Assembly: GCF_003966735.1 (NCBI RefSeq)
Contig: NZ_AP017378.1
Location: 1,848,905 to 1,880,904, forward strand
Direction of reading: 5' to 3'
DNA: 32,000 bases
From: Desulfovibrio ferrophilus
GTDB taxonomy: Bacteria; Desulfobacterota; Desulfovibrionia; Desulfovibrionales; Desulfovibrionaceae
Shown one piece after another: positions 3,298-23,770 of the stretch (position 1 is its first letter; each line of letters starts with the position of its first letter). The position numbers were made by a program, and so were the translations under genes. A model generated the notes under the pieces. That model had not been told where the DNA came from, did no database searches, and was given only the letters and a program-made list of their open reading frames with translations.

Positions 3298-4807
3298 CGG
3301 CGATCTCCTGTTGCTTGCTATCCAGTTCACGCAGGCGGGCTTCTTCGGCTTCGCGCTGGTCCCAGACCTCCTCGATATCGCCACCGCGTTCGGCAATAAC
3401 GTCGGCGTAAGTGGTCAAGCGGGCCTCCAGGGCCTTGGTCGAGGCCACGACTTCCTTCACCGGATCCACATACCCACGAGCGGGGCCAATCCAGGTGGCG
3501 TTGGTGTAGGCAGCCATCGCGTCATAAAAATCGGGAGCGCCCTGGGGCAGCGTGATGATGCCGCGCAGCCAGGCTTCTTCCTGGATCATGCTCCAGATGG
3601 GCTGGCAATAATGACGCACCAGCCAGGTGCGGTAGAGCATGAAGATGCGCCAGGCCTCCAACAATGCGGCCCGGGCGGAGGAATAGTTGGTCTTGGAAAA
3701 ATCCTTGGCCAGGACCTCGTAGGGCATGCCCACAGAAGCGGCCATGGAACGCATGATCAGCTCGGCAAACGAGGTGAAGTTGTTGCCGGGCCGTTTGCTT
3801 TCGATGGGGATGGGCTCTTCACCCGGATTGCCATAGGCGACCGTGCCGGGGGGAAGATTCTGGAAATAACGACGCTGATCCTCTTCGCCTTCCACTGGCT
3901 GGGGCTGCGCCCACTGGCGAGCAACGGCTTGGGGGTCCTTGGTGGCGATGAACACCGGGAAGGACGCGGAGACGATCTGCGCCATGAGCTCGTAGTCGAA
4001 GGAGTCGTTCAGATGCCGGAACAGCTTCATGCCCGGGGCGAGCTTGGGCACACCGCGCACCTGTTCGTCCTCCTCCGCTCGGAAGCAGTGGAACACGCCA
4101 GGGCGGTGCCCGGTCAGCGCCGGACGCCGGACAAAGTGGGCCGAACCAAGGAGGGAGAATGGTTGGTTCAGGCCCACTCCCCGGCTCGGCTCAGGGCTGG
4201 CAATCCAATAGGCAAGGGGACGGCCGATGGGCGACAGCTCCACGCCGTCTCGAAGGGACGTATCCATGGTGCGGTCGGAGGGGGTACAAAGACGCGCCGG
4301 ATGCACATCCTGAAACGCCAGAGAAAAGGTACGGCCCGGATCATCGAGCATCAGCGGCAGATGCACCAGCTCGCCCATGCGCAACAGCGAGCGCATGCCC
4401 AGAAAGACAAGGTCGTCAAAATGGAGCTTACCCGAGACGTGCGCCTCAGCAGACCACAGTCGCCAGGCCCACTCCATCTGCTCGTTTAGGTCTTTGGCGG
4501 CTTCCTGCGAGATACCCAAGCGCTTCCAATTCACTCGCGCCTGGGGCTTGATGCCTGAGCCGACCGTATTCACGGTCATGGAATCGACAACCGAAGCGGC
4601 AGCCCAATCGTTGGCGGTCAAATCCTCGGAGCGGGTCTGCGCGGTGCCACGCTCGAAAGCCTCGTGGGAAATGGTCGTGCGGGTGGGACGGTAGTTGCTG
4701 AGGGTACCGCGATGCCGCCCGGCGTCGCGCGAGATAGACGGCATGGAGCGACCAAGGGCGGAGGCCATGCGCAGGGAGCGCTTGCGAGTCAGCGCCGGTG
4801 CCCTCAT
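3290..4807 (-). CDS. Portal protein, lambda gpB family
   Basis: 505 aa, ATGA overlap with the gpW stop. Sequence style is that of the lambda portal family (…NDWAAASVVDSMTVNTVGSGIKPQ…). Order is W-portal-protease. Confidence 0.9.
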   Translation of the reverse strand: MRAPALTRKRSLRMASALGRSMPSISRDAGRHRGTLSNYRPTRTTISHEAFERGTAQTRSEDLTANDWAAASVVDSMTVNTVGSGIKPQARVNWKRLGISQEAAKDLNEQMEWAWRLWSAEAHVSGKLHFDDLVFLGMRSLLRMGELVHLPLMLDDPGRTFSLAFQDVHPARLCTPSDRTMDTSLRDGVELSPIGRPLAYWIASPEPSRGVGLNQPFSLLGSAHFVRRPALTGHRPGVFHCFRAEEDEQVRGVPKLAPGMKLFRHLNDSFDYELMAQIVSASFPVFIATKDPQAVARQWAQPQPVEGEEDQRRYFQNLPPGTVAYGNPGEEPIPIESKRPGNNFTSFAELIMRSMAASVGMPYEVLAKDFSKTNYSSARAALLEAWRIFMLYRTWLVRHYCQPIWSMIQEEAWLRGIITLPQGAPDFYDAMAAYTNATWIGPARGYVDPVKEVVASTKALEARLTTYADVIAERGGDIEEVWDQREAEEARLRELDSKQQEIADV

Positions 4808-5025
4808 CGCACAACCCGCCCGGTGACGAACACGGGGCCGGACTGACCAACGAGCTTGCAGCGCTCCGCATCAAGCCATTCGATAGTGGTGCGGATCTCC
4901 GGCGCGTCCTGCAGCGTGAGCGTGCGCCCTGCTATAGAGTACGCTTTACCCCGCGACACGGAGAGAAGCGCCTTCTTCCAGGCGGCTATCTGCTGCTCAA
5001 GCTCTTCTGTTGACCAAATAGACAT
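4804..5025 (-). CDS. Head-tail joining protein gpW-like
   Basis: 73 aa immediately upstream of the portal gene. Size and motif layout (…GKAYSIAGRTLTLQDAPEIRTTIEWLDAE…) match the lambda gpW family. Confidence 0.7.
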   Translation of the reverse strand: MSIWSTEELEQQIAAWKKALLSVSRGKAYSIAGRTLTLQDAPEIRTTIEWLDAERCKLVGQSGPVFVTGRVVR

Positions 5026-5059
5026 GCCCGGCAGGATAGACCGGGCCGGGCATCATGTC

Positions 5060-5085
5060 GTGGACGTGGTGGACGTGGTGGACGG
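5060..5085. repeat. Tandem 9-mer GTGGACGTG x 2.9 at the high-GC/low-GC junction
   Basis: Read directly: GTGGACGTG GTGGACGTG GTGGACGG, immediately followed by an A-run and the AT-rich island. Confidence 0.8.
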
Positions 5086-5163
5086 AAAAAAATATTATAA
5101 AACGACAAACTAATTATATATTCACAAACACAGACAGTTATCTAACCAACCCCAGGCAATCAT

Positions 5164-7572
5164 CTATCCGAGCAATTTCTTCTTTAATTCTATTTCAATT
5201 TTTTTCAATGAACCTTTAAGAATATTATTTTCTGCATAAAAACTAAAATCAGAAATACAGCCTTGTTTTATTATAGCGGTATCTCCATAACTACCACTCT
5301 CTTTATCAAGAGCATTATTGAAAAACATATCCATTATAACATCATAATTCATCGATAAACCAACCTGAGACATTGAAATATCGGCAAGATCAACACCCTT
5401 CATTATCAATGCATCTCGATAAACAAATTCATCAACAACCCGTTTAATATCTTTAATAAGCAAAATATATGAATATTTCGTTTCGCCGCGTTTTGCTTTC
5501 AACGATTCAATGATATAAACTGTATCTTCATCTAAAAAACAATTTTTGAATGAACTTGAAGCAAAAGTATCACTATTTAAAAGGCTTAAATACTTTGTAT
5601 AACAGGATACAAATTTAGTATTTCTATCAAAAATGCAAGATGAAAACGATGTATGCACAAATCTACAATTTGAAAAATGACAGTTTGAAAAATCAAATGC
5701 AGAAATTTCTCCGTTAAAATACAAATCACTAAACATATCATTTATAGAAAGAAATTTTTTAAAATATCTAGTCCGCTCGTGCACATCCGAACGAGAAGCC
5801 AGCTTTGATATTGCCTGCAAAGCAAGCGTTGTCCCTAGCAACGACAAAGAGCTCAGTTGCGAATTAAAATGAATACTACACCCCATACTCAGCAAAAATT
5901 GAACGATAGATACAACTTCTGATTCAGCTTTACTTAAATCTTGCCGTGAAAAAGAATACTCCACAATCGCTAACGCAACATTAGAGGCATGAAGAGAATT
6001 CAATGATATCAAATCATTTATAAAAGCCAAAAGATCAGACTGAGAGAAAACATCAAGCTCTCCTTTTACATCAGATCGCTCAAGTATATACTCGCAAATA
6101 CGCTGCGCAGCCAAATTATAGAAAATTTGCTCCTGCCTAAATGCCCAAACATTATCTTCGCTATCTTTCAAACACAAAAGAGGATGCGAGGTCAGTTTTC
6201 CAAGAGCTCGATTATCAGCGCCTCCTAACAAATCAACAATTTGATGCGACTCGACGCCATTAGCCTCTAAAACCTCCTCCAATACCTCACCGCTCCCTTC
6301 ACCCAATTTAGAGGCTGTCGCCTCAATAAAATCCTTAAAAACTTTTAATTGAGTTTGAAAATCTAGGCCAATCTGCTGCCTCCTCTCCTCACGCTCGCAC
6401 AAACGCTCCATTAGCCAAGCTAAATAGCTTCTCCCATTGAGATGATCACGCAAATCTGAAACGCTATGCCCATATTTAAATAAATCTGCAAGCAAACTGA
6501 TCGTAACGCCCTTACCAATTGGGTTATACTTTCTATCAGCAAATATAAGGTAAAGATCTTTATATAATTTCAAGGCTTTTTGAACAGCCCCCTCTGATTC
6601 AATCGTTAGTTTAAAATACCTTTCCACCTGCTCATCTTTAAACGATTTCATATGAAACACATCAACATCACAAGGCAATGTGCTTAAAACATCATCGTTT
6701 ACAGCCGCGTTCCAAAAAGTAGTTCTTGAAGTTATTATAATATCAGAATTTGAATCATGTGCGAGCTCAGCCAATGACCGCAAAGCCTCTTCTGCACTTA
6801 CCGTTTTATTGTTCCAAAGAATATACTCATCAAACCCGTCAAATATTATTTGAAATACTCCTGCGGCTAGCATTGCTTTTAAAAATCGCTTCTCGTGCCC
6901 CTCAACCCAGTGGATCGAAGCCCCATAATAATTGAAACAAAAAGTTAAAGTACTCCATATAGATTTCAAGTCACTTTCAAAAATTGATTTCCACTGGTTG
7001 GAAAAAATATAAATAGGTATGATATCGGTCATACTTGAAGCAAAGTGCCTAGAAAAAAAAGACTTACCTTGCCCAGGTGAAGCCAACAAAACTTTCAAAG
7101 CCCCCTTATCACGTGAAGGCCCCACCTTCACCCCAGGAAAAGAACGAGAAGCATCTTCTGATTCAATCGTGGGTTGGATATAATTATCCACTGTAAGATC
7201 AGAAATTTTCTTTTTATAATCATTAATTTCTGATGTAATCAACTTCACTAAGAATTGACGAGTAGTATAAACGCTCAAGTTGTCAAGACCAACTATAGTT
7301 TTTATATTCAACTCCATAGAGACTGGATGGACGACTATCGGATCACCTAATCGTGACACCCTTGAAAACGCTCTATTAACAGAATCCGTTGTGGCATCAG
7401 AGTAAAAATATATTAAATACTTAATTGAAGCAGCATCTAAAGCTTGCCTCATGGAGAATTTATAAATTTGCCAATGCCCTTTTTCCTCATAATCACATTT
7501 GGAGTTGATTGTTATATCACCATGACATCGTAGCAACTCAACAATAACTTTAAAATCTAATTTACTATCCAC
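5164..7572 (-). CDS. NACHT-type STAND NTPase with an unassigned N-terminal domain and C-terminal pentapeptide repeats
   Basis: 802 aa with a GTG start 4 nt after the upstream stop. Walker A is ASPGQGKS (res 164-171), Walker B is IIFDGFDE (242-249, the NACHT DGxDE signature), and a TSR motif lies at 281-283. Phe recurs every 5 residues at 628/633/638/643/648 (FDFSNCHFSNCRFVHTSFSSCIFD). Confidence 0.8.
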   Translation of the reverse strand: MDSKLDFKVIVELLRCHGDITINSKCDYEEKGHWQIYKFSMRQALDAASIKYLIYFYSDATTDSVNRAFSRVSRLGDPIVVHPVSMELNIKTIVGLDNLSVYTTRQFLVKLITSEINDYKKKISDLTVDNYIQPTIESEDASRSFPGVKVGPSRDKGALKVLLASPGQGKSFFSRHFASSMTDIIPIYIFSNQWKSIFESDLKSIWSTLTFCFNYYGASIHWVEGHEKRFLKAMLAAGVFQIIFDGFDEYILWNNKTVSAEEALRSLAELAHDSNSDIIITSRTTFWNAAVNDDVLSTLPCDVDVFHMKSFKDEQVERYFKLTIESEGAVQKALKLYKDLYLIFADRKYNPIGKGVTISLLADLFKYGHSVSDLRDHLNGRSYLAWLMERLCEREERRQQIGLDFQTQLKVFKDFIEATASKLGEGSGEVLEEVLEANGVESHQIVDLLGGADNRALGKLTSHPLLCLKDSEDNVWAFRQEQIFYNLAAQRICEYILERSDVKGELDVFSQSDLLAFINDLISLNSLHASNVALAIVEYSFSRQDLSKAESEVVSIVQFLLSMGCSIHFNSQLSSLSLLGTTLALQAISKLASRSDVHERTRYFKKFLSINDMFSDLYFNGEISAFDFSNCHFSNCRFVHTSFSSCIFDRNTKFVSCYTKYLSLLNSDTFASSSFKNCFLDEDTVYIIESLKAKRGETKYSYILLIKDIKRVVDEFVYRDALIMKGVDLADISMSQVGLSMNYDVIMDMFFNNALDKESGSYGDTAIIKQGCISDFSFYAENNILKGSLKKIEIELKKKLLG

Positions 7573-7576
7573 AGCT

Positions 7577-8419
7577 CTACACCCCTATACAATCAACAAG
7601 AATAGCACTAGACACAGAGTCAACATCAAAGTATACGCACTTGCTAAAATCTATGCCGCGCAATTCCGCCCCACAAAAATCAACTTCTCGCAACTCTGCT
7701 CCTTCAAAATCAACATCAACCAATAATGAGTTACAGAAACTTGCCCCATTTATTACTGACTTTGAAAAATCACTATCAACAATTAGACAATCATCAAAAT
7801 CACCACCACGCATCTTCGACAGCACAAAACTACACTCAATCAACACTGAGCCACTAAATGAAGAATCAATAAACTTGGCCGCGCAAAATCTACACCCACA
7901 CATATCAGATTTCACAAATGACACCTCATTAATGTCTTTATTACATAAACTTAATTTTACTATCTCTATGCAATCCAGATTAAAACCTTTAACTTTCAGC
8001 CTACACAGCTCATCAAAACAGTTAACCAAGCCAGAATGACTATATGGAGTATATACCTCTTTGCATACATCCATCTTTACACGAATAGAATCAATACTTT
8101 CATTTTTCTTTTTTCTCTCCGACAGAATATGAAATACAATACCAAATATAAAAAACTCTAAAATAGCCCCGTGCATTTCAACTTTTACACCAGAAAAAAA
8201 ACTTTGATCATTCAAATAATTTTTTAATGATATTGAAAAAGTAACAACAATTAGCGCTATAAATATAAATACAAGCTCTTTATTCGAAGCACAAAATCTT
8301 TTTATACGACTATAATACAAAAAATAAAATCTCTTCACATTAGATATATAAAACATCAAATCAAAATTTATACACCATGTAGCAAACAAATTGTATTTAT
8401 CATATAAACTTGAAAGCAT
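7577..8419 (-). CDS. Membrane-anchored pentapeptide-repeat protein
   Basis: ATG at 8419 is preferred over the GTG at 8425 because an AGGAG lies 5 nt upstream. Hydrophobic helices LVFIFIALIVVTFSISL and AILEFFIFGIVFHIL. After these come about 24 pentapeptide units, with Phe at ORF residues 170,180,190...260 (e.g. VDFEGAELREVDFCGAELRGIDFSKC). Confidence 0.75.
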   Translation of the reverse strand: MLSSLYDKYNLFATWCINFDLMFYISNVKRFYFLYYSRIKRFCASNKELVFIFIALIVVTFSISLKNYLNDQSFFSGVKVEMHGAILEFFIFGIVFHILSERKKKNESIDSIRVKMDVCKEVYTPYSHSGLVNCFDELCRLKVKGFNLDCIEIVKLSLCNKDINEVSFVKSDMCGCRFCAAKFIDSSFSGSVLIECSFVLSKMRGGDFDDCLIVDSDFSKSVINGASFCNSLLVDVDFEGAELREVDFCGAELRGIDFSKCVYFDVDSVSSAILVDCIGV

Positions 8420-8581
8420 TCCCACTCCTATACATTTTCAAATATATACAATCCATTGAGCAAGTGCCATATTGCTCTTAGCTGAACCGATACATTTTGT
8501 ACAGAAAGTTGTTTTTTTAATTACTTGTATTGGGTTTCTCCTACTCTCCCATGCTTTTTACTGGAAACATCCTTATCTTCT

Positions 8582-8794
8582 TCACCTGCTGAGCCCCGAG
8601 TGCCTACTTAATAAATTATTCACCTCTTCTTCCCACACCCACACCCCGCGCACCTTCCCTGCCCGAAAAGCTGGAAGCTTGCCCTCATTAATCAAATTAT
8701 AAAAATGGCTCTTGGAGCAATTCAGCATCTCGCAGGCTTGCTTCCAGTTCAATTTTCGACCTTTGCCCATCTCTGCGCTTCTATCCATTTTCAT
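8582..8794 (-). CDS. Small helix-turn-helix DNA-binding protein (excisionase/AlpA/MerR-like HTH)
   Basis: 70 aa. LNWKQACEMLNCSKSHFYNLINEGKLPAFRAGKVRGVWVWEEEV matches the excisionase-family HTH pattern. Its ATG lies 2 nt after the terL stop (TAG 8797-8799). Intermediate GC. Confidence 0.6.
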   Translation of the reverse strand: MKMDRSAEMGKGRKLNWKQACEMLNCSKSHFYNLINEGKLPAFRAGKVRGVWVWEEEVNNLLSRHSGLSR

Positions 8795-8796
8795 AG

Positions 8797-10803
8797 CTAT
8801 CTCCTGTTGAACCAGTCCGGGCGAGAACCGTACCCAGCATTTGTATTGGGGTGGGGGATCATCTGCTGCTTACGTTCGTTCGCCTGCTTCGGCTTCGCCC
8901 TTGGCCGCTTCCAGTTGCGGATGTTCAACTCATAGGCCGCCACCAATGCCATGACCTCACAGTCCCAAAAGTGATTATCCTTGCCCTTGGGGCACTGCCA
9001 ACAGAGCTGCTCATCGTCGTAGTATTCGGCCACCATCTCCTGAGCATATTCATTGGTCACACTCGCATGCAGATGAAACGCGCCCGGGTCGCTTGGCTCT
9101 ATCTGCAGTTTAGCGGCGAGATCATTCTTGAAGAAGGTGGTATCCACCTTCCACAGCACAAGGCCACCAGGGATGCGAGATTTTGTACCTGGGTAGAATT
9201 CCTGCGGGGCATACTGCACAGGTGAAGAGAGTGTACGCTTGCCCTGGTAGGGGAACACCCGCCCTCGATTCTTGACGCAGAACTGATAGACTTCTTTGGT
9301 GCGCGTGCCCATAGCGTCCTGCACCGCCAACCGCACACGGTGCTCATTCCCATCCGCATCGCAGTAGGTGTTCTTGCAAAGTACCTGCTCTAGGGCCTCG
9401 AAGCTGGGGACGCTCCCGGCCTGCACCAACCAGCTCTCCTCATCCTCGCCCCAGCCGATGGCCCGGATCACGTAGCGGAAATAGCGCTTCTGGGAGTCCA
9501 CCCCGGCCACCAAAGCGGCCACGTGCGGAGTACCGTCCTCCAGCGCCCCGGGCACGATGCCGCGCGGACGGTCGTCGCACAAGGCCAGGATCGCATCCTC
9601 GTTGCGCTGCACCTCATAGGCTCGCCACGGCTCGGCCTTGTACTGGTTCATAAAGTCCTTCAGGTCGTCGCGGTTGCCGGTCTTCTTCCATTTCAGGAAG
9701 GCCGCCGCGACCTCGGAAAGCGAAACGAAGTAGGACAGCCAGGCCGGGATATGGAACCCAACCTTGGCCGGGCGATGCGCACGCAAATGCCCCGCCAATT
9801 CCAGCCCGGTGTTGCGCGCCCGCCACTCGCCCAAGCGCACGGCCTTGTCTCGGTCGTTGTCGTCCCAGCACACACCACACTGCCCGCATTCGTACCAAGC
9901 CAGGCGACGCGCACGAACCACCTCGGGATCCCGCTCATCCTTGGGCCAACGAATATGGTCAAAATCCATGAGTAGGTGCATCCCGCAATGCGGGCAACGC
10001 ACAAAGTAATCAAAGACGACTTGGACCTCTTCGGTCAGCGACCGCCAGATCGGGCCGCTCTCTATGGTGGGGGTCGAGATCTTCCATATCTTGCGCTTGC
10101 GCCGCCAGGTCGTGGTGCGCTTCTCGGCCAGGGCCTCGCTGGAGGTCTCGTTCTTGGGGTTCTTGTATTTGTCCAGCTCATCCATCACCAGAAAGCGCAC
10201 CGGCTTGTTTCCCAGGCGGGAGACGGAGCCGGACCAGCCAAGGTAGATGGTCATGTGCGCAAGGTTGATACGCAGGCTGCTGGCGTCGTCCGCAAGCCCG
10301 GTCAGATAGTTGCGCAGCTGCGGGCTGGACTCCAGCATCGGGATGATCCGGTCCTGGGCATTCTCCTTGGCTGTCAGCCGATCCGGGAATACATACATCA
10401 CCGGCCCAGGCGCACGGTCGATTGCGTAGCCGATGCAGTTATGAATGGCTTCGGACCCGCCGGTCTGCGGAGTCTTGCAGATGGCCACCGTCTCCACGGA
10501 CGGAAAAAACGAGGCATCCATCACGCCTGCCATGTAGGGGGTCACCTCGTTGTGCCAGCGCCCGGGAATGGACGACTGATGAACGATGCGGTGCTTCTCT
10601 GCCCATTGGCTCACGGGCATGGGCCTGCGCTTGCGGTAGACCTTGCGCTCGCCCAGTGAGAACCGGAAGCGATGCACCACACGGCCATCCTCGCCAATTC
10701 GCCGCGACAAAACGGAGCGCACCGCGTCGGGTAGCCAACGCGGCAGCGCCACCGTCAGGCTGCGGCTATTCACCTGTTTCGGTTCCATTTCCTGCATCAG
10801 CAT
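8797..10803 (-). CDS. Terminase large subunit, lambda GpA family
   Basis: 668 aa. N-terminal ATPase (…ICKTPQTGGSEA… and FLVMDELDKY), a Cys4 zinc-finger-like CPHCG…CGQCG, and GpA-style overall length and organisation. An earlier or later start (M3/M6) is possible. Confidence 0.9.
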   Translation of the reverse strand: MLMQEMEPKQVNSRSLTVALPRWLPDAVRSVLSRRIGEDGRVVHRFRFSLGERKVYRKRRPMPVSQWAEKHRIVHQSSIPGRWHNEVTPYMAGVMDASFFPSVETVAICKTPQTGGSEAIHNCIGYAIDRAPGPVMYVFPDRLTAKENAQDRIIPMLESSPQLRNYLTGLADDASSLRINLAHMTIYLGWSGSVSRLGNKPVRFLVMDELDKYKNPKNETSSEALAEKRTTTWRRKRKIWKISTPTIESGPIWRSLTEEVQVVFDYFVRCPHCGMHLLMDFDHIRWPKDERDPEVVRARRLAWYECGQCGVCWDDNDRDKAVRLGEWRARNTGLELAGHLRAHRPAKVGFHIPAWLSYFVSLSEVAAAFLKWKKTGNRDDLKDFMNQYKAEPWRAYEVQRNEDAILALCDDRPRGIVPGALEDGTPHVAALVAGVDSQKRYFRYVIRAIGWGEDEESWLVQAGSVPSFEALEQVLCKNTYCDADGNEHRVRLAVQDAMGTRTKEVYQFCVKNRGRVFPYQGKRTLSSPVQYAPQEFYPGTKSRIPGGLVLWKVDTTFFKNDLAAKLQIEPSDPGAFHLHASVTNEYAQEMVAEYYDDEQLCWQCPKGKDNHFWDCEVMALVAAYELNIRNWKRPRAKPKQANERKQQMIPHPNTNAGYGSRPDWFNRR

Positions 10804-11347
10804 CTGTAAACGTCACCTCGAATTCTGCTTTACTTGCAAACTGGTTCAGCGCTTCGTTGAGATAGCCATCAAACACTTCCAAAAACCGCTGTGACTTGCG
10901 TGGGTCACCGTCCACCAAGTGGATCAGATCGAGCACGTTCATCTCCACGGCCTGCCGAAGACCAGACTCCAAAACAACAGCCCGGCCCGCCAGCTCCAGC
11001 TCCACCTGTTCACGAGGGATGAAGCGGCCACGCTCCACCTCCCGCTTAAAGCGGATCCGCGCGGTCTCTTCCTCAATCTTCTGAATGGTTGCTTCCTGCC
11101 TGCGCCTGGCGAGCTCCTTGATATTGTCGGAGTCCACCTTGGGCACGGCCACCAAGGGCAACGCCTGCGCGTAGGCATCCACAGCGGCCTTGCTAAATCC
11201 GCCTCCGGGCTGTCGCGCGAGCAGTCCTGTTTTCACATCCTGATACAACTTGGATTTTCTCACCTTGCGACCGCAGTCCTGCAGGTGCTCAAGAACCTCG
11301 TTAACGCTCGTAAGATTCTCCATCGGCATCTGATCTGTCTTGCTCAT
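10766..11347 (-). CDS. Putative terminase small subunit / DNA-recognition protein
   Basis: 193 aa directly upstream of and overlapping terL. Has a helical, charged middle region. Assigned by position only. Confidence 0.4.
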   Translation of the reverse strand: MSKTDQMPMENLTSVNEVLEHLQDCGRKVRKSKLYQDVKTGLLARQPGGGFSKAAVDAYAQALPLVAVPKVDSDNIKELARRRQEATIQKIEEETARIRFKREVERGRFIPREQVELELAGRAVVLESGLRQAVEMNVLDLIHLVDGDPRKSQRFLEVFDGYLNEALNQFASKAEFEVTFTDADAGNGTETGE

Positions 11348-12759
11348 CAGATCCTCACCACCAGGTTATCCGCCGTGATAATCGCGGCGGGATGTCGGTC
11401 GAGATAAGCCCCTAGTTCGTCGTCCTGAAAGCACAACTCCTTGAGCCGTCGCAGAATGCCAGTGTGTCCACGAAGGGGCTTCGGAATATCGAAAGGTTGA
11501 GAACCACTGAACGTCAGCTGAATGCCGGTCTCCCGCAGCAAACGCTCCAAGGCCGCCAGGCTGGTGGTTTTTTGTTCAGGCTGCTTAGACTCAGGTGAGG
11601 CCAGGGCCGGAGCCGAGACCTCGGGAGTGGGTTGGGGTTTGGCTGGACGCACAGGGGCCGCAGGCATGAGCATGACCGGCGGCAGGCCCGCCTTGATCCA
11701 GTCCGCGATACTCACACCCGCCGCGAAGGCCTCGCCGGGATCCTTGGCTTCGGGCACTGGCCAGCGTTCGGCGTGATCGTAGGTCACCTGCCACCAGTCA
11801 CGCACGCGGCGTTGCTGGCGCACCTTGCGCTCGGCTTCCAGCTGAGCCTTTTCGCTGCTATCCGTCGGCACGAAGGACTCAAAATCCAGTGCATTCAGAA
11901 TGGTCAGAGATTGGGAGAGGACCCCATGCGTCCAGGCATCCGGCTTGGCGGAGATAGTGCCCAGCCCCAGAGCGCCCACGTCGTCACCTGTAGCAAAGTC
12001 GCAGAGCATGGCGTCCAGCTCCGCTTCCACAGCCACAAAGGCCCGGGCACCAGGGGAGAGAACCATGGTCCCGCTACCACTGCCCGGCACCCAGCAATAT
12101 TTCTTGGGGCCAAACGGCCCGGGCTTGGGGCGGCGCACACGCACACGGTGCAGTTGACCATCATGGAAAATTGGAATCACCAAGCCCGCTGGTATCCACA
12201 ACTTGCGCGGCTTACCCGTTCGCGGGTTCATCTCGTGCGGCAAACCCCACGCCGAGCGTTCGCGGTACACATCTTTGGAGAGCCACCCCAGCCGATAACG
12301 CTCGACAGCCTCCAAAGGCAGACCTCGCCGCGCAAGGAACTCCAAAGCCTCAGAGGTCCGCAGCAGTTCAGCATGGGCCGCGACCACCAGTTCATTCGCT
12401 CGGGTGCGCCAGCGCTCGGAAGGCTCACGGGCGGGCTCTGGCTGCCACGGAGAGGCCTCACGAAGACGCCGTGGGGGCAGTAGTGGACGCGGGGCGCATG
12501 GCTCCAGCTTTCGCCCAACGAAGGCCGCAGCGGCACGAAAATCCATGTGTCGAAAATCCACCAGGTACTGAATACAATCGCCACCGGAATCGCAGCCACG
12601 GCACCACCAGCTACCATCCCCACCGTTCTGCTCAGGCCAGCAATGGAAACGATCCGTCCCACCACACCCCGGACAAGGGCTGTGGTGCTCACCACCCTTG
12701 GAACCGGACACCTTACGAGGCGAAACACCATCAGCCTGTAGTAACTCAAGCACGTTCAT
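11347..12759 (-). CDS. DNA primase with an N-terminal primase zinc-ribbon (T7 gp4 / P4 alpha type) and a probable TOPRIM region
   Basis: CPGCGGTDRFHCW…WWCRGC…GGDCIQY matches the CPxCGGxDRF primase zinc-ribbon signature. An acidic FVAVEAELDA segment is consistent with TOPRIM. 470 aa. Confidence 0.7.
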   Translation of the reverse strand: MNVLELLQADGVSPRKVSGSKGGEHHSPCPGCGGTDRFHCWPEQNGGDGSWWCRGCDSGGDCIQYLVDFRHMDFRAAAAFVGRKLEPCAPRPLLPPRRLREASPWQPEPAREPSERWRTRANELVVAAHAELLRTSEALEFLARRGLPLEAVERYRLGWLSKDVYRERSAWGLPHEMNPRTGKPRKLWIPAGLVIPIFHDGQLHRVRVRRPKPGPFGPKKYCWVPGSGSGTMVLSPGARAFVAVEAELDAMLCDFATGDDVGALGLGTISAKPDAWTHGVLSQSLTILNALDFESFVPTDSSEKAQLEAERKVRQQRRVRDWWQVTYDHAERWPVPEAKDPGEAFAAGVSIADWIKAGLPPVMLMPAAPVRPAKPQPTPEVSAPALASPESKQPEQKTTSLAALERLLRETGIQLTFSGSQPFDIPKPLRGHTGILRRLKELCFQDDELGAYLDRHPAAIITADNLVVRI

Positions 12760-13059
12760 GTGCGCCTCCCCCCTCCGACCAGTGGAAAAAGCAAATTTTC
12801 TGCATGGTCCTACCCTGCTCCTGCTTCGATCCTGGCTTTGATCCTATCTCTAACATCTTTATTTTCTTTATTATTATAAGTTAAATAGGATAATAGGATG
12901 ATAAGTGTTGATACTTGTCTGAATGTCGCAACAGTACCGTATAAGGGACTCTGCACATGAATCATCCTTGGGTCCTGGCCGCACTCTATGACCCCGAAAT
13001 TGCGGGATATTCACCCAGGAGCGAAAGCGGCTACCCGCTCCTGTCTATGGTCCTTCGTC

Positions 13060-14763
13060 CTAGAACAGCTTCTCTCCACCCATTTCCTCACGGGTTTCAG
13101 CATTGAGCAGCAGGCCGTAGTACCAATTCTTCCCCCCCACCTTTTCCTTACGGAACTTCTTCTGGGCCAACGCGCCGAACTTGCGCTGGGGGAATTGCTT
13201 CTTCTTGGAGATGTTCACCGAAAACCAGCGCACGAAGGCGTCATAGAGATCCGTAGCATTCGTGCGGGTCGAGGGATCATTCAGATCAGCGAGCACAACG
13301 TCGCAGCAGTCGTCCACGAACAAGGCCAGCAAATCCTCATCCCGGCGATAATCATCCGTAGCGGCAAGGACCTTGGCAGGCGGATTCAGGCCATGCTGTT
13401 GCCACTCCAAACAACCACGCACCAGCCAGGCGAGAATGCCCGAGGCCTCAGCCATGAGCGCTTCCCCCAGGGAGTCGTCGCGCCGCATCTCGGTCTCGTC
13501 CTCTGGCTCACGATTCACAAAAGAACGCTCAAACGGGATCAGGTGCATCCGTTCCCAAAAGGCGAAATCATCGGCCGGGGCATGGGGCTTGTGGTTAGTC
13601 AACAGAAAGAGGATGTGCGTAGGCGCAAAGGTGATGGGCCGCTTGTCGTTGGGCCAGCGGCCAGTGAGCATGTCACCGCCAGAGAGCCATTTACAACGAG
13701 CCGAAGAGAAACGACGATTTTCGTCCGTCTCGGAGGCAAACGCCGCACGAAGACCACGCAAAGCCATAATGGAAGGAGACGGTGCGTCGGAGTTGCGGAC
13801 GCTGTTCTGATCCAGCAGCATCTCCGCCGGGATTGGTCCAGCGAGTGGCCCAAGAACATGCATAATAGTTTCGACCAGCATGGATTTGCCGTTGCGCCCC
13901 TTGCCATGCAGCACCGGGAGCACATGCTCCTTGTTACCGCCGCGCATGGAAGCACCGAACAAGCGCGCCAGATAACCGGCCATCTCGGCATCATCCCCCA
14001 TAATCTCATGGAGGAACCGCTCCCAACGAGGAGCCGGGGCATCGATCCCCTGCCATTCAACGGGCGAGGCCTTAAGGATAAAATCTTCCGCCCTCCCCCC
14101 ACGAAACCGACCAGAGCGAAGGTCCAATACTCCATTTGCACAGGCCACCTGCCATTCGCGGGCATCCAATTCTTCACCAGAAATGGCCAAGGGGGTGCGG
14201 TTGGTGTGGGCAAATTCCAAGCAGGCTTCGGGGCCACCCTTCTTGCGGAGCCTTTTGACCCGGGTCATGACCATCTGCTGTTGACGTTGATAGAGCGTGG
14301 CCGCGTCCTTATTTCCGGATTGAGAGGCATCCGTAGCCGATTGCCCAAGGCGCGAATGCTCTTCCAAAAGGCGCTCCGCCACGGCTTCGACCTCGGCCTT
14401 AGCCTGGTCCATCTTATCCAATCCCCAATGGTGGCCACTCCAAACAAGCCACTCCTGGGTCTGTTTGATGAAGAGGAATCTGTCGCGGTGGATTTCCGCA
14501 TAAAGCATCCCAAGTCCGAGATCCTCCGCACGTACGCAAGGCATAACAAAATCCGAAGGAACCGTGCGGCTCCCTCCGCCAGCATGGTTATCCTGACCGT
14601 CTTGATCATCCTCGGTCTGACCGGCCCGCTCCTCCTCCGCACGTCGCGCCTGTACCTTGCGGCGCATCTCTTCCAGGTCCGAAACGGCGACTCCCTGGGT
14701 GCCGGGCACCTGATCACCAGCTTTGGCCTCTGGTCCCGACCCCGTTTTGAGCTCATGGCTCAT
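13060..14763 (-). CDS. SF3 helicase, D5 / phage-plasmid primase P4 C-terminal family
   Basis: Walker A is LHGKGRNGKSMLVETI, followed by ...LRAAFASETDE (Walker B-like). The C-terminal region is typical of D5/P4-type NTPases. 567 aa. Confidence 0.85.
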   Translation of the reverse strand: MSHELKTGSGPEAKAGDQVPGTQGVAVSDLEEMRRKVQARRAEEERAGQTEDDQDGQDNHAGGGSRTVPSDFVMPCVRAEDLGLGMLYAEIHRDRFLFIKQTQEWLVWSGHHWGLDKMDQAKAEVEAVAERLLEEHSRLGQSATDASQSGNKDAATLYQRQQQMVMTRVKRLRKKGGPEACLEFAHTNRTPLAISGEELDAREWQVACANGVLDLRSGRFRGGRAEDFILKASPVEWQGIDAPAPRWERFLHEIMGDDAEMAGYLARLFGASMRGGNKEHVLPVLHGKGRNGKSMLVETIMHVLGPLAGPIPAEMLLDQNSVRNSDAPSPSIMALRGLRAAFASETDENRRFSSARCKWLSGGDMLTGRWPNDKRPITFAPTHILFLLTNHKPHAPADDFAFWERMHLIPFERSFVNREPEDETEMRRDDSLGEALMAEASGILAWLVRGCLEWQQHGLNPPAKVLAATDDYRRDEDLLALFVDDCCDVVLADLNDPSTRTNATDLYDAFVRWFSVNISKKKQFPQRKFGALAQKKFRKEKVGGKNWYYGLLLNAETREEMGGEKLF

Positions 14764-15254
14764 GCAGCGCCTCCAGCCGGTAACACGAAGTCAGAACAAC
14801 GGACGTCAAACAGGTGTAGCGCCTGATGATTTTCCATTTTTCCACGTAATGTTTTCCGCACGCCACGCGAAAAGCGTGAGAGTTTCAGTACCCGTACTTG
14901 GGAAAGGCCAGGAAGGACCCGTGGCCTTCGGCATCGAGAAAACGGCCTATAGGACCATCTGGCTTGCTTCTTAGGGAGGGGGGAGAGGGGGAAGCGCGCG
15001 GGCCGCTGAAAACTCACAGACGTACAAGGCGCGTTCGGATCGTTCGTGCAGGTAGGTTGAAATGTGGACTCAAATACAGACACAGGGTATGATTGCGGGT
15101 CACCACAAGGCCTGCGACGGTTCGGCGCGGATAAGTAGCCGGATAAGTGAAATGCGGATTTTACACGAAAACAGGGGGTAAAAGCCTCCCCCATTAATTC
15201 ATCATAACTACCTGTAATTTGATGGAAAAGTGGGTCTACTGCGGTAACGCTCGC

Positions 15255-15304
15255 CCGGCCTTCTAAGCCGACGGCCGGGGGTTCGAATCCTCCCTGGCGC
15301 ACCA
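15255..15304 (+). other. 3' fragment of tRNA-Arg(UCU): anticodon arm, variable loop, T-arm, acceptor 3' strand and CCA. Probable prophage attachment-site scar.
   Basis: Reads CCGGC-CTTCTAA-GCCGA / CGGCC / GGGGG-TTCGAAT-CCTCC / CTGGCGC-A-CCA. No complementary GCGCCAG acceptor 5' strand or D-arm is found upstream. Confidence 0.55.
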
Positions 15305-15315
15305 TAAAATCAAAT

Positions 15316-15349
15316 GGTTCCGGTGATTTACCGGAGCCATTTTTCTTTT
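15316..15349 (+). terminator. Rho-independent terminator downstream of the tRNA fragment
   Basis: GGTTCCGGT-GATTT-ACCGGAGCC (9 bp including one G.U pair) followed by ATTTTTCTTTT. Confidence 0.6.
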
Positions 15350-15816
15350 GGTTTCTCGATTTGCCATTTTGCTCATTGCGGGCGGAAGACAAACAGACAT
15401 GGAAACACCGGGCCATCGCTGCCGCGAAGCCCCGGCCAGCGCCTCACCCATCCGCCCGGAGCCGTCCCCGCACGACGGAAATCGACAGCTTCCTTGATGG
15501 ACACCTGTGGCGTTCAAAATTTCAAAAAAAGTCCTGTGAGAACGGCCAGTCTAAGCACATAAGGGTAATGCATCACAATAGAAGCGAACGCTATATAAAC
15601 TATATTGAGAACATATAAAACAACAAAACAGCAAGTATACCATATCGAAACACATCATATGAAGACAAACAAATGAACAACGTGTTGCAAGCGCGCTAAA
15701 CATTATGTAATGTTATAAACAGGTACAATTTTATACACATTGCACCCCGGACAGAATCGGCTCGCAGGATCTGCATCACTGTTTTGCGAACGGTCCCGCC
15801 GGAAGGCTGGAATAGC

Positions 15817-18768
15817 ATGGGGCGAGTACAGACGAAAACCAAAAGCAAAAGCAAGAGCGTAGGCTCCTCCTCCCTGCAGTATGAGACGGTGCCCACCAAA
15901 ACAGCAATACCCGCCGATCAGCCAAGCCTGTTTCCCGATGCCTGCCCCGAACCGGTCATGCGGGTGGATTGCGACGGCCGGATTCAGTACGCCAACGAAG
16001 CCAGCGCGATTATTCTTGAGCATTTCAGTTGCCAGGCTGGCGAAGTTCTCCCCGAGCCGCTGTTCTCCAAGGTCTTCCCGAAGCCTTCCCCCGGCAAATG
16101 CCACAGCTTTGAAGCCCTGTGCCCCAAGGCCGTCTTCGCCCTGACCGTGGTCCCCTTCCCGGAGTACGGCTTCGTGCATGTCTACGGCCTGAACACCAGC
16201 TCACACAAACTTCACACGACCAAGCTACAAATCCGGGACCAGATTCTGGATATGTCCCAGACCGCCGTCCTCGTGACAGACCTCGAATTCCACGTCTGCT
16301 ATACCAACGCCTCCTTCCTCTACATGTGGGGATTCACCCACAAGCGGGAAGTCCATGGGCGCCGTTTCCTTGATTTCTGGGATAACGAAGCCGCCGCGTC
16401 CAAAGTGCTCCAGGCCGTTCGCAAAAAGGAATACTGGGCCGGGGAGTTGATGGCCAAGGGGCATGGCCGCCCTCCCTTCCGCATCCGGGCCTCGGCAATG
16501 CTGGTCAAGGACAAGGCCGATACCCCCCTGTGCATTGCCGGGTCGTTCATGGACATCACCGAACAGGCCCAGATCAACGAGGCCCTGCGCCACAGCGAAG
16601 AAAAATATCGCGCCTTGGTCGAAACCACCAGCGACTGGATATGGGAGGTGGATTACAACGGAGTTTACTCATACGTCAGCCCGAAGGTACAAGACATCCT
16701 GGGCTATCCTCCCGAAATTCTCCTTGGGCAGTCACCGTTCGACTTCATGCCCGTAAAGGAGGCCGCCCGAGTCTCTGCAATTTTCCATGACCACATCTCG
16801 AAACGGAAACCCTTCAAGAATCTCGAAAATACTAACTTGCACAAGGATGGCCGCCACGTGGTTCTCGAAACCAGCGCGGATCCTATTTTTGATCAAGACG
16901 GCAAGTATTTAGGATATAGAGGCATCGACAGGGACATCACCGAACGCAAACGAGCTCAAGAGACTCTCAAACAAATTCGCGACGAACTCGAACAGCGCGT
17001 CAGCGAGCGCACCAGAGAATTCGAAAAAGCACACAAGCGCCTGGAAGAAAGTGAGGCCCGCTACCGTGCGGTGCTTGAAGATCAAACTGAACTCATCTGC
17101 CGCTTCACCCCCGATGGAACGCTGACCTTCGTAAACGACGCTTACTGCCGGTACTTCGGGACGGATCGGGAACAATTGATGGGCAGATACTTCAAACCGC
17201 TCATCCCCGAAGAGGACCGCAAGAAATGCGAATTCCACTTTGCCTCGCTCACCAAGGACTCTCCCGTAGGGCGACTTAAGCACAGGACCATCATGCCCGA
17301 CGGTGAAATCCGCTGGCAACACTGGATCGATAAGGCCATCTTTGATGAGCACGATAGGCTTGTGGAATTTCAATCCGTTGGCCGAGATATCACGGCCAGC
17401 GTCCTCGTAGAACAAACCTTGCGCCGCGCCCACAAAGAGCAAGACAAGTTGCGCAACACTTTGCAAGCGGTCTTCCGTAGCATGTCCGATTCCATCATTA
17501 CCGTGGATCAGGACATGCGCCTGTTGAACAAAAACCAGGCACTGACTTCGCTCTGCACAAGGGCTCCCTACATGATCGAGGGCAAAGACCTCAATGAAGC
17601 CTTTGACAATGACCATCATCCCGCTTGCCTGCGTGTATTGAGCCAAGTATTGGAAACCAAGACCGCTATTCGCGGTTACCGGGCAGAATGCCGTTGCGGC
17701 ACTCGCTGTAACCAGGTCACCATGCTCAACGCCTCGCCCCTCATGACCAGCAACAACCAATTCGCTGGTGCGGTTCTCGTGGTCAGAGACGTCACTCGCC
17801 TAGATGAGCTGGAGAAGCGTCTGGACGAACGCGCCAGCTACCGAAGCATCGTGGGCAAAAGTGAACGAATGCGTGAGATTTACACCATTCTGGACCAACT
17901 CACTGACCTGAAAACAACAGTCCTGGTCATGGGAGATTCAGGGACCGGCAAGGAGCTTATCGTCGAGGCTCTGCACTACGGCAGCACCTGCATCACTGGC
18001 CCTCTGGTCAAGGTTAACTGCGCGGCGCTGGCTGAAAACCTGCTGGAAAGCGAACTCTTCGGCCATGTACGGGGCGCCTTTACCGGCGCAGTCCAGGACC
18101 GTATGGGCCGTTTCCAGGCCGCCGAGGGTGGCACCATCTTCCTGGACGAAATCGGGGATCTGAAGCCCAGTACACAGCTCAAGCTGCTTCGTGTCCTTGA
18201 GAGCAAGGAATATGAACGCGTTGGTGATTCAACCACGCACAAGGCAGATGTCCGGGTCGTTGCAGCCACAAATCGCAACCTCTGGGACCGGGTTCAGGAC
18301 GGGCATTTCCGCAAGGACCTCTATTACCGACTCAAGGTCATGGTCATCAAACTGCCGTCCCTGCGTGATCGAACCGGTGACATCCCATTGCTCACAGAAC
18401 ATTTCCTCGACCACTACCGGACCATCTATGGCAAGGACATCACAGGTGTCACCGGAGAGGTCATGGAGGTCTTCGTCCGCTACTCCTGGCCAGGCAATAT
18501 CCGCGAACTCAAGCATTCCCTGGAACACGCCAGCATTCTCTGTCCAGGGGGCCCCATCACGATGCGCCATCTGCCCGTGGAGTTGCAGACCCAGTTGCTG
18601 CCGGATAAACACAACGTCGACAACGCAACGCTCTGGGATTCTGAACGCGCCAGAATCTCCAAAGCCCTAGAACAGGCCCACTGGAATAAAACAGTTGCCT
18701 CAAAACTGATCGGTATCAGCCGCACCACGCTCTACCGAAAGATGCAGGAACTGGGCATCAAACCTTAG
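15817..18768 (+). CDS. Sigma54-dependent enhancer-binding protein with about five PAS domains, an AAA+ domain and a Fis-type HTH
   Basis: GDSGTGKE Walker A, ESELFGHVRGAFTGA (GAFTGA loop), GGTIFLDEIGDL Walker B, C-terminal SRTTLYRKMQELGI HTH. There are repeated PAS-like blocks (e.g. YRALVETTSDWIWEVD, YRAVLEDQTELICRFTPDG). Start at ATG 15817 is preferred over the ORF-track start. Confidence 0.9.
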   Translation: MGRVQTKTKSKSKSVGSSSLQYETVPTKTAIPADQPSLFPDACPEPVMRVDCDGRIQYANEASAIILEHFSCQAGEVLPEPLFSKVFPKPSPGKCHSFEALCPKAVFALTVVPFPEYGFVHVYGLNTSSHKLHTTKLQIRDQILDMSQTAVLVTDLEFHVCYTNASFLYMWGFTHKREVHGRRFLDFWDNEAAASKVLQAVRKKEYWAGELMAKGHGRPPFRIRASAMLVKDKADTPLCIAGSFMDITEQAQINEALRHSEEKYRALVETTSDWIWEVDYNGVYSYVSPKVQDILGYPPEILLGQSPFDFMPVKEAARVSAIFHDHISKRKPFKNLENTNLHKDGRHVVLETSADPIFDQDGKYLGYRGIDRDITERKRAQETLKQIRDELEQRVSERTREFEKAHKRLEESEARYRAVLEDQTELICRFTPDGTLTFVNDAYCRYFGTDREQLMGRYFKPLIPEEDRKKCEFHFASLTKDSPVGRLKHRTIMPDGEIRWQHWIDKAIFDEHDRLVEFQSVGRDITASVLVEQTLRRAHKEQDKLRNTLQAVFRSMSDSIITVDQDMRLLNKNQALTSLCTRAPYMIEGKDLNEAFDNDHHPACLRVLSQVLETKTAIRGYRAECRCGTRCNQVTMLNASPLMTSNNQFAGAVLVVRDVTRLDELEKRLDERASYRSIVGKSERMREIYTILDQLTDLKTTVLVMGDSGTGKELIVEALHYGSTCITGPLVKVNCAALAENLLESELFGHVRGAFTGAVQDRMGRFQAAEGGTIFLDEIGDLKPSTQLKLLRVLESKEYERVGDSTTHKADVRVVAATNRNLWDRVQDGHFRKDLYYRLKVMVIKLPSLRDRTGDIPLLTEHFLDHYRTIYGKDITGVTGEVMEVFVRYSWPGNIRELKHSLEHASILCPGGPITMRHLPVELQTQLLPDKHNVDNATLWDSERARISKALEQAHWNKTVASKLIGISRTTLYRKMQELGIKP

Positions 18769-18997: not shown

Positions 18998-20368
18998 ATG
19001 TACCTACAGCAAGCACTGCAGAAACTCGTGATGCCTCTGGCTCTGATGCTGCTCTGGGCAGCACCAATGACTGCGGCAGAAACCAGTCAATGCATCGAAT
19101 GCCACACCACCCCGGAAAAACTCATCAATGCCGTGAGGGAAATCGCCAGAAGTACCGTCGGAGTGCCCAGCGGATCGACCCAATTCGCAGGCGAAGGGTG
19201 AGGTGGTGCGGTGGAGCCGTTGGCTCCGCACGAAAAGGTCTTTGTGGACCGGGCTTTCCTTGAGGATGAAAACCACGGGGAAATCGATTGTCACGACTGC
19301 CACGGGGGCAACCCCGGTGAGCCAGATTTCATTGCGGCCCACGATGGACTGGTGCGCGATCCGACCACCGGCGACGCAACCCGGGTCTGCGGTGATTGCC
19401 ACGAGGAAGTGACCACCATCGCCAAGGGTAGCCTGCATGTTACCCTGAAGCCCTTCCAGCTGATGATCGACTCCCGCAGCGGCAACACCCCCGAGACCAA
19501 GGCCAATGTGGACACTGCCAGAAACGCCCATTGCGGGGCCTGCCACGCCAGTTGCGGACAATGCCATATCAGCCGCCCATCCTATGTGGGGGGAGGATTC
19601 CTGGACGGACACCAGTTCATACGCACCCCCCCCATGCGCGAAGTCTGCACGGCCTGTCACGGCAGCCGGATTGAAAACGAATATTTTGGTAAGAATCAGG
19701 GGTCGCCGCCTGACGTACATTGGCGCAAGCGCTTCTTCCGCTGCATCAAATGCCACACCGGTGAGGAAATGCATGGCGATGGTCAAACCGATGCCGCTCA
19801 CCGCTACGAGGCTCCCAGAGCACCGCGCTGCGAGGACTGCCACCTCTCCATCTACGCCGAGGGTGCCGACAACGCAAAGCAACATCGCACGCATCGGGAA
19901 CAGGTAAGTTGCCAAGTCTGTCACTCCGTGCCTTACAAGAACTGCAGCTCATGCCATGTCGCGCTCGATCGCTATGGCTTCAAGTATTTCAATAACGATG
20001 AAAACTTCCTGGGTTTCAAAATCGGGCTCAACCCCCAGCAAAGCCTTAAGCGCCCCCAAAGATTCGTGACGCTCAGGCATGTCCCCGTGGCCCCGAATCT
20101 GTTCGACTTCTACGTGGAAAACGGACTTGCCGAATTTGATGCCCTACCAACATGGAAGCTGGCCACACCCCACAATATTCGCAGGATCACCCCGCAGAAT
20201 AAGACCTGCAACGCCTGCCACGGCAACAAGGCTCTGTTCCTACTGTCAGGGGATGTATCCGAACCCTACCGACGGGCCAACGCCATGGTCATGGTTCCGG
20301 AAACCGAGATTCCACCCCGGCAGGATGAACAAGCCCTGCTGAGCATCGATCAGGGAGAAACGCCATGA
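18998..20368 (+). CDS. Periplasmic multihaem cytochrome c (about 11 CxxCH) containing an in-frame TGA at 19199-19201 (putative selenocysteine, or else a disrupted gene)
   Basis: Signal peptide MYLQQALQKLVMPLALMLLWAAPMTAA plus CIECH lie before the TGA. Ten more CxxCH motifs follow in the SAME frame (the ORF-track entries 18842-19201 and 19211-20368 are both frame 2). GGAGGG RBS before ATG 18998. Confidence 0.6.
19206..19231 (+). promoter_or_regulatory. SECIS-like hairpin immediately 3' of the in-frame UGA
   Basis: GUGC-[GGU bulge]-GGAGCC-GUU-GGCUCC-GCAC: 4+6 bp, with a bulged U and a GU in the apical loop. The loop G lies 20 nt from the U of the UGA. Confidence 0.4.
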
Positions 20369-23768: not shown

Positions 23769-23770
23769 CC

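Follow-up and report, generated by a model that had tools for sequence, protein, structure and literature searches.

A candidate two-gene anti-phage cassette pairing a NACHT NTPase with a membrane pentapeptide-repeat protein in a Desulfovibrio ferrophilus prophage

That NACHT proteins serve as anti-phage sensors is established, and NACHT–pentapeptide fusions as well as prophage-encoded NACHT proteins have already been described, essentially as single-gene systems (Kibby et al., bioRxiv 10.1101/2022.07.19.500537). Here we describe a 32,000-nucleotide stretch of the Desulfovibrio ferrophilus chromosome (hereafter the window), in which a gene for a NACHT nucleoside triphosphatase (NTPase) of 802 amino acids lies directly behind a gene for a membrane pentapeptide-repeat protein of 280 amino acids; the two genes are referred to as the cassette, and the membrane protein as the partner. 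Both proteins are identical to NCBI entries (BBD08465.1 and BBD08466.1). Like the NACHT proteins of Kibby et al. (bNACHT), the cassette protein has an N-terminal domain, a central NACHT domain with a D[GAS]hDE motif, and C-terminal repeats; pentapeptides are among the C-terminal sensor repeats of bNACHT proteins, which likewise occur in defence islands and prophages. NACHT–pentapeptide fusions are a recognised category in that survey, as an initial annotation of the locus, made from the sequence alone, had also stated. Unlike bNACHT, the cassette belongs to a clade with an apparently coupled partner, consisting of two transmembrane (TM) helices and pentapeptide repeats (2TM-pentapeptide), and with a degenerate N-terminal domain, and no named NACHT model matches it. 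Bacterial NACHT defences being otherwise single-gene, the cassette probably represents a rare variant with two components, rather than something categorically new.

An NLR-like NTPase and a separate membrane-permeabilising effector in one operon, as proposed below for the cassette, are combined in the NLR-like/CARD-protease/gasdermin operons (Wein et al. 2025, as cited in PMC13434031). There, according to the citing article, a protease activates a gasdermin pore via CARD adaptors, whereas the cassette has no protease, CARD or gasdermin, and its putative effector is an integral protein with two TM helices and a beta-helix. Hailong (PMC13434031) is also a two-gene system, with a small toxic membrane effector (the HalA ion channel) and a cytoplasmic controller (the HalB nucleotidyltransferase); unlike Hailong, the cassette lacks a nucleotidyltransferase, and the island that carries it holds two genes only. 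The HalA model reaches 15.8 bits against a cut-off of 250, solely on the pentapeptide stretch of the NACHT protein, and has no match in the partner.

The pentapeptide repeats of the partner resemble those of Qnr, MfpA and AlbG, which form a right-handed quadrilateral beta-helix. Those proteins are soluble dimers that protect gyrase, whereas the partner has an N-terminal 2-TM module, and it scores far under the NCBIfam equivalogs for Qnr (23.6 bits vs. 240) and MfpA (18.7 bits vs. 360). The highest NCBIfam 20.0 (2026) match for the pair was EruA, with 16.3 bits where 1000 are required; identities with EruA, HalA and Qnr were rejected, as all scores were far below their cut-offs and reflected generic motifs only. 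PADLOC 2.0 (2023) returned no family for the pair at E ≤ 1, Avs models included; the one sign of Avs/AVAST is a weak resemblance in fold between Avs3 and the N-terminal domain (E = 0.04). The accessions of the two proteins are absent from the searchable literature. The supposition in the initial annotation that this architecture has no named system agrees with the PADLOC and NCBIfam results.

The larger cassette gene (5164–7572; this and all other cassette features lie on the minus strand) starts with GTG and encodes a NACHT (NLR-like STAND) NTPase. On sequence and model grounds this identity is secure, because the protein has the DGFDE signature, PF05729 is carried by 45 of 61 full-length homologues (precomputed annotation), and an AlphaFold2 (AF2) model matches NLRs. 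The Walker A motif or P-loop ASPGQGKS (residues 164–171; 7060–7083) contains SPGQGKS (165–171), which fits GxxxxGK[ST], and all of 47 homologues keep G167, G169, and K170. The Walker B motif IIFDGFDE (residues 242–249; 6826–6849) includes D245-G-F-D-E249, which is invariant in the NACHT family and fits D[GAS]hDE, the form that separates NACHT from other STAND NTPases (Kibby et al.). Further motifs are TSR at residue 281 and FDFSNCHFSNCRFVHTSFSSCIFD at residue 626. The single sequence reaches only a partial PF05729 match below the Pfam cut-off (18.7 bits vs. 26.7), so that the profile support comes from the homologues; UniRef names the protein a NACHT domain-containing protein. The AF2 model, built on the 47 homologues (predicted local distance difference test (pLDDT) 89.6, predicted template modelling score (pTM) 0.88), has the nucleotide-binding, helical and winged-helix domains of NLRs. 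Its best Foldseek matches in the PDB are NOD2, NLRP3, and NLRC4 (E = 2.6e-9 to 1e-6), and the top 40 are NOD2, NLRP3, NLRC4, NLRP1, and NAIP (E = 2.6e-9 to 1e-5). The motifs lie at the residues assigned to them at the outset, and the NOD2, NLRP3, and NLRC4 matches back the NACHT fold called then.

The N-terminal alpha/beta domain of the NACHT protein (residues 1–125; 7198–7572), which stands at the effector position of NLRs, is predicted to have an alpha-beta-beta-beta-alpha-beta topology when modelled separately (pLDDT 85). Its fold matches in the PDB are weak (EcoT38I restriction endonuclease, E = 9e-3, template modelling score 0.34; the nuclease region of Avs3), and in BFVD they are viral restriction endonucleases (template modelling score 0.40–0.43). 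A PD-(D/E)xK restriction endonuclease was rejected, since neither PDB nor BFVD gave a fold match at E ≤ 1e-3; no D/ExK motif is conserved in strands 2–3 of the domain in the NACHT family, and none is present there in the 802-residue protein. The domain is therefore treated as unassigned. Near the other end of the protein is a putative short pentapeptide beta-helix of about three coils (residues ~611–680; 5533–5742). As a single sequence this block scores 15.1 bits against the Pfam pentapeptide cut-off of 20.2; a match to the pentapeptide structure 2w7z (E = 7.8e-6) comes from the profile of the family, the AF2 model has periodic short strands at residues 613–676, and F638 and F648 are invariant in the family. 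The C-terminal alpha/beta tail (residues 681–802; 5167–5532) is confidently modelled by AF2 and conserved across the family, has no Pfam or PDB sequence match, and presumably belongs to the sensor region.

The partner gene (7577–8419) encodes two TM helices, a juxtamembrane helix and about 24 pentapeptide units. A GTG start would give 7577–8425; the ATG at 8419, 5 nucleotides after AGGAG, gives 280 amino acids, which is also the NCBI call (BBD08466.1). Both Pfam pentapeptide models match above their gathering cut-offs (Pentapeptide, 48.8 bits vs. 20.2; Pentapeptide_4, 49.7 bits vs. 38), and phrog_12514, a PHROGs family of unknown function, matches residues 39–265 (E = 1e-16), covering both the TM and the repeat regions. 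TM helix 1 comprises residues 49–65 (8225–8275; Kyte–Doolittle peak 2.24), and TM helix 2 residues 80–99 (8123–8182), with the motif V-E-x-H-G-x3-(D/E) in a 43-member family alignment. The beta-helix spans residues ~145–265 (7625–7987), with Pfam stretches at 196–263 and Phe at 168, 178, 188, and so on to 258, a period of 10 residues. Basic residues flank both cytoplasmic sides of the TM helices, which suggests an N-in/C-in topology that places the beta-helix in the cytoplasm. A pore like that of K+ channels was rejected for the TM module, as the TM1–TM2 loop has only about 14 residues and no filter motif. In a tblastn search of 50,697 phage genomes, the partner found just two generic pentapeptide matches.

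The stop codon of the partner gene (TAG) is followed by AGCT, a 4-nucleotide spacer, and then by the GTG of the NACHT gene; the two genes are probably translationally coupled. The sizes, spacing and GTG start first assigned to the two open reading frames (ORFs) all stand, as do the ~24 pentapeptide units and the 10-residue Phe period of the partner. An unusual Cys/Phe/Ser-rich flavour said to be shared by the two repeat blocks proved to be ordinary pentapeptide-repeat composition; compared directly, the blocks show generic similarity only (E = 0.005 over 22 residues).

The NACHT protein has 61 homologues of about 800 amino acids that align end to end at 25–37% identity, from Acidobacteriota, Gemmatimonadota, Nitrospirota, Mariprofundus, and other groups. 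They share a layout of a ~125-residue N-terminal alpha/beta domain, NACHT, a helical region, a short putative pentapeptide beta-helix, and a C-terminal domain of ~120 residues. No pentapeptide gene adjoins the NACHT gene in 26 genome loci and 45 metagenome loci, together 71 of 74 family loci; the metagenome loci, from a JGI scan, include none of the clade described below and none with a partner. Nor was another conserved partner found when 1140 neighbouring ORFs were clustered, as no neighbour family occurred in more than 3 of 72 loci. Because of these 71 loci and the lack of a recurrent neighbour, the NACHT family is normally a single-gene unit. PADLOC matches among the neighbours of the single-gene NACHTs (L001–L075), most commonly the MADS components mad3 (four ORFs) and mad8 (three ORFs), and further AriA, GajA (PARIS/Gabija-type ATPases), PglX, PD-Lambda-5, and TIR effectors, fit residence of the family in defence islands.

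A 2TM-pentapeptide gene abuts the NACHT start codon in P0002 (37% identity) and P0003 (34%), the homologues nearest to the cassette protein. These upstream partners (L027, 283 amino acids; L028, 250 amino acids) have two TM helices, the motif G-(I/V)-x-V-E-(M/L)-(H/N)-G, and pentapeptide repeats, and the gene junctions are TAAATG in L027 and TGA, one base, and ATG in L028. The three paired NACHTs form one clade (neighbour-joining bootstrap 100/100) with a mutual identity of only 32–38%, and their partners are ~24% identical. The loci lie in three unrelated contexts: the prophage hotspot described below, a chromosomal low-GC island (0.32 vs. 0.50) between signalling genes, and a site beside an integrase and a resolvase. 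Adjacency has been kept over a divergence in which all other neighbours changed, which argues for a functional unit and against chance co-location. The two-gene architecture is real but rare: the expectation that the pair would recur is borne out by the two closest homologues, but recurrence is confined to three loci in one clade, against 71 single-gene loci. A scan of IMG/VR with the paired-clade NACHT alignment found no relative.

The paired clade also departs from the family norm in its N-terminal domain. Among 44 single-gene members, this domain has the conserved residues E/D9 (44/44), N15 (41/44), S/T17 (39/44), T20 (36/44), W34 (44/44), G/A39 (44/44), Q/H79 (38/44), and E/D106 (35/44); in the paired clade they are replaced (V/S/K at 9, I/G/L at 20, and so on). 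Identities in the paired clade, expressed as ratios to the family norm, are 0.63 for the N-terminal domain, 0.58 for the C-terminal tail, and 0.81 for the ATPase core, and N-terminal domain identity within the clade is 0.22 vs. 0.33. We infer that the original function of the N-terminal domain may no longer have been needed once the partner had been acquired.

The partner belongs to a family of its own. With a profile of its TM module, 49 of 1.84 billion representative proteins were recovered at E ≤ 1e-3, among them the three input sequences of the profile. Members have the layout TM1, short loop, TM2, basic stretch, juxtamembrane helix (I..Y.EEIDD.R.W...EA..RI.G.I.RL), and pentapeptide repeats. 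Over 43 aligned members, TM2 conserves V80 (39/43), E81 (42/43), G84 (42/43), and D/E88 (43/43); the acidic residues E81 and D/E88 are seven positions apart (i, i+7) and lie on the same helix face. None of the seven other relatives whose surroundings were examined has a NACHT neighbour. One (P0064; L076:1–8005) lies downstream of an SNF2-family helicase and a 1347-residue Eco57I-like protein, in a restriction- or BREX-like island context. A second (P0072; L112:5001–7555) is carried by an integrase/AlpA element with the layout of a P4-like satellite, beside a SAVED-domain protein and a Pfam Acb5 gene. A third (P0073) lies two genes from a 356-residue fusion of pentapeptide repeats and TIR, the two being encoded at L114:229–1299 and L114:3238–4152; here again an immune-type protein with pentapeptides occurs close to a 2TM-pentapeptide gene. 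The others are found with a pentapeptide–K+-channel protein, with a Y1 transposase and a BrnT toxin, and in two uninformative loci. A further pentapeptide protein, P0063 (426 amino acids; L029:1613–4889), is soluble, lacks the TM module, and converges with gyrB, a setting like that of MfpA/Qnr which has no connection with the cassette.

These occurrences bear on the explanation that each cassette gene is a defence system in its own right, sensing and acting alone, and that the two are adjacent only through co-transfer within defence islands. The 71 of 74 NACHT-family loci without a pentapeptide partner are in keeping with it, as are the seven 2TM-pentapeptide relatives, none of which adjoins a NACHT gene and several of which stand on their own in mobile or defence-like surroundings. 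Mere co-transfer would, however, leave the spacing of a few bases to be explained in three loci with different neighbours and with proteins as divergent as these (32–38% identity for the NACHT proteins, ~24% for the partners), as well as the absence, elsewhere in the NACHT family, of any neighbour family in more than 3 of 72 loci, and the loss of conserved N-terminal domain residues specifically in the paired clade. We consider independent systems unlikely, and the two cassette genes probably work together.

The cassette occupies a fixed position in its prophage. The minus-strand gene order runs from primase/helicase genes, the small terminase and the large terminase (TerL; 8797–10803) to a helix-turn-helix (HTH) gene (8582–8794), a 155-nucleotide AT-rich spacer, the two cassette genes, and then a head-tail adaptor (4804–5025), portal, prohead protease, and major head protein. 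Among 34 IMG/VR loci fetched with TerL as the handle, the genes for TerL, HTH, adaptor, portal, and protease are collinear in relatives whose TerL is 52–97% identical, while HTH and adaptor genes lie anywhere between 0.14 kb and more than 6.8 kb apart. What fills this slot differs between relatives. At a TerL identity of 97% (L080) it holds a GmrSD type IV restriction enzyme with a ParE/Phd pair (7890–11407); at 76%, AbiLi (1.8e-93) with AbiLii (RloB) in one relative (L079; 9117–11452) and SoFic (4e-45) with other genes in another (L078; 6707–9297); at 79% (L086), an FRG protein, an unknown protein, SIR2 (9.5e-167), and HerA (3e-248) (9182–16013); and at 52–62% (L081–L083) it is empty. The cargo of the relatives is low in GC in every case, as in the window. 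Two cargo genes may be recorded besides: one of 277 residues (L086:10354–11187) without a PADLOC or Pfam match, and a zinc-ribbon-like gene of 202 residues within the L078 cargo (L078:8656–9264).

With flanks (TerL–HTH and adaptor–portal) conserved in seven relatives and interchangeable cargo that includes known defence systems, this slot (5026–8794 in the window) is a defence hotspot of the prophage family. It resembles the hotspots of P2 and P4 (Rousset et al. 2022, PMC9122126), in which interchangeable low-GC anti-phage cargo occupies a fixed position between conserved phage genes; unlike those, it lies between TerL–HTH and the head-tail adaptor in a prophage family of Desulfovibrio type. 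The strongest available argument that the cassette, too, is anti-phage is that it occupies a slot holding known defence systems in four relatives, and we regard an anti-phage function as likely. The initial view of the cassette as a defence moron of a prophage gains strength from the GmrSD, AbiL, SIR2 with HerA, and SoFic systems in the same slot.

The HTH gene itself encodes 70 amino acids, is HTH_17/excisionase-like, directly follows TerL, and has a GC content of ~0.45, below that of the backbone; its PADLOC match is weak (MADS MAD1-like, E = 9e-5). In related prophages it is kept at 47–92% identity whatever the cargo, empty slots included, and because of this conservation it is assigned to the phage backbone. 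A role as regulator of the cassette was rejected on the same ground, and the gene lies outside the island.

Between the HTH and adaptor genes, GC per 100 nucleotides is 0.20–0.49 from ~5090 to 8600, vs. ~0.60 outside. The resulting island of 3.5 kb (36% GC vs. 60% outside) is foreign, horizontally acquired DNA. On the left it is bounded by the stop codon of the HTH gene, which is conserved; at its right edge, alignment to related prophages places the start of the conserved backbone at TTTTCCGTCCACCACG. The cargo island, delimited by the GC drop and by comparison with relatives, thus comprises an upstream region of its own and two genes only (~5090–8581, minus strand), because the right edge of the slot is formed by a conserved element of three copies of GTCCACNAC (5057–5083) and a GC hairpin (5026–5046). 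This backbone element (5026–5083, minus strand) stands directly upstream of the adaptor gene, is conserved in L078–L081, and could be a regulatory or recombination element. The AT-rich region upstream of the cassette (8426–8581, minus strand) has one promoter-like site (8470–8441), which is suggestive by its position alone, as the total of such sites in the region does not exceed chance.

With some reservation, we propose that the cassette is a mobile two-gene anti-phage system in which a NACHT switch and a membrane effector bring about abortive infection; as a whole, this proposal has a little less than even standing. The NACHT protein would be the sensor and switch, with its C-terminal region (helical domain, three-coil pentapeptide beta-helix, and 120-residue tail) recognising an infection cue, and nucleotide-dependent oligomerisation would gather the N-terminal domains. 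In single-gene relatives, the conserved N-terminal domain would presumably deliver the output; in the paired clade, its conserved polar residues would have been lost and the coupled 2TM-pentapeptide partner gained. The activated NACHT oligomer may then dock on the partner via the cytoplasmic beta-helix and cluster it, so that the TM hairpins assemble into an ion-conducting or membrane-disrupting structure. Membrane depolarisation would follow, and phage could no longer multiply in the cell. An effector role of the partner is possible, and is the part of this proposal about which we are most hesitant; in its favour are the conserved acidic residues of TM2 and the surroundings of its relatives, beside SNF2 and Eco57I-like genes, beside SAVED, and near the pentapeptide–TIR protein.

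Several observations weigh against the proposal. Both the NACHT and the 2TM-pentapeptide families mostly occur alone, and each may be self-sufficient. PADLOC gives no match for the pair, so that the defence role rests on context. The N-terminal domain, which would deliver the output in the single-gene NACHT family, has weak fold matches only, and these are restriction-endonuclease-like. The C-terminal tail of the paired clade is also strongly diverged (ratio 0.58), and because of this the partner could interact at the tail, or change what is sensed, rather than be the effector. The three paired loci represent one evolutionary event, which makes the link between partner and N-terminal domain loss a single instance (n = 1), and the tree of partner proteins is saturated (distances 0.83–0.86) and without resolution, so that co-divergence with the NACHT proteins is not demonstrable.

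The divergence of the tail bears equally on an arrangement in which the roles are reversed or regulatory, with the partner as sensor, guarded DNA-mimic bait, or membrane inhibitor of the NACHT protein, and the NACHT protein providing the output. The C-terminal region of the paired NACHTs has diverged as much as the N-terminal domain, as expected if the sensed cue had changed, and the N-terminal domain still folds confidently in the model. The pentapeptide beta-helices of Qnr and MfpA mimic B-DNA and bind DNA enzymes (cited in PMC7159879), which would suit a bait at the membrane attacked by DNA-binding or injection proteins of phages, and a 2TM-pentapeptide relative lies near a pentapeptide–TIR protein, in which TIR would be the effector. 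If the NACHT protein delivered the output, however, the loss of family-conserved residues and the weaker constraint in its N-terminal domain (0.22 vs. 0.33) would be unexpected, and no output domain is evident in it; the invariant acidic pair of TM2 would also be harder to account for in a passive anchor than in a pore or ion path. Reversed roles appear to have a low probability.

That the cassette is not a defence system at all, and is instead a prophage moron for host physiology, a superinfection exclusion determinant unrelated to the NACHT protein, a Qnr-like gyrase modulator, or decaying foreign DNA, could be argued from the lack of a functional match in PADLOC, NCBIfam, or PHROGs and from the pentapeptide homologue beside gyrB, but is highly improbable given two intact ORFs with conserved catalytic motifs, recognised defence systems in the same slot of four relatives, NACHT-family neighbours enriched in defence genes, and the lack of a TM module in that homologue.

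Going beyond the cassette as a two-gene system, one may speculate, with a low probability, that 2TM-pentapeptide proteins are a widespread, unrecognised class of membrane immune modules. Their beta-helix would act as a DNA-mimic bait or as a dock, and their TM hairpin as a gated ion path, either alone or plugged into varied switches; here, an NLR-like protein would have outsourced its output after decay of its N-terminal effector, a natural instance of a bacterial NLR whose effector has been replaced in trans.

The remainder of the window supports a phage origin of the genes around the cassette. PHROGs identifies the large terminase, head-tail adaptor, portal, major head protein, primases, and small terminase. 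Because the phage genes give way at ~19 kb to host multihaem-cytochrome and sulfate-activation genes, they are a prophage or prophage remnant, in line with the setting assumed from the start. Neither an integrase nor a tRNA was seen in the window, so that the end of the prophage can be placed only roughly, at ~15–19 kb, with a GC dip at 15–16 kb; positions 19000–32000 are host DNA encoding several multihaem c-type cytochromes, cytochrome b, a sulfur-transport protein, and ATP sulfurylase. Opposite the phage genes, in the region of 60% GC, the plus strand has long ORFs at 267–1625, 3311–4489, and 12988–14826; these are not genes but shadow ORFs of high-GC DNA.

Bacterial NACHT and NLR-like proteins are seen as self-sufficient, one gene supplying the sensor together with its effector. 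If the proposal is true, the combination of an NLR-type sensor with a separate membrane protein would show that output can be exchanged in trans, comparable to the way in which eukaryotic inflammasomes recruit separate executioners; the paired clade also bears signs of decay in its own domain at the effector position. The conserved 2TM-pentapeptide family is a candidate for a new membrane effector or sensor. Phage defence has been little studied in sulfate reducers, and the hotspot in their prophages could be mined for more systems.

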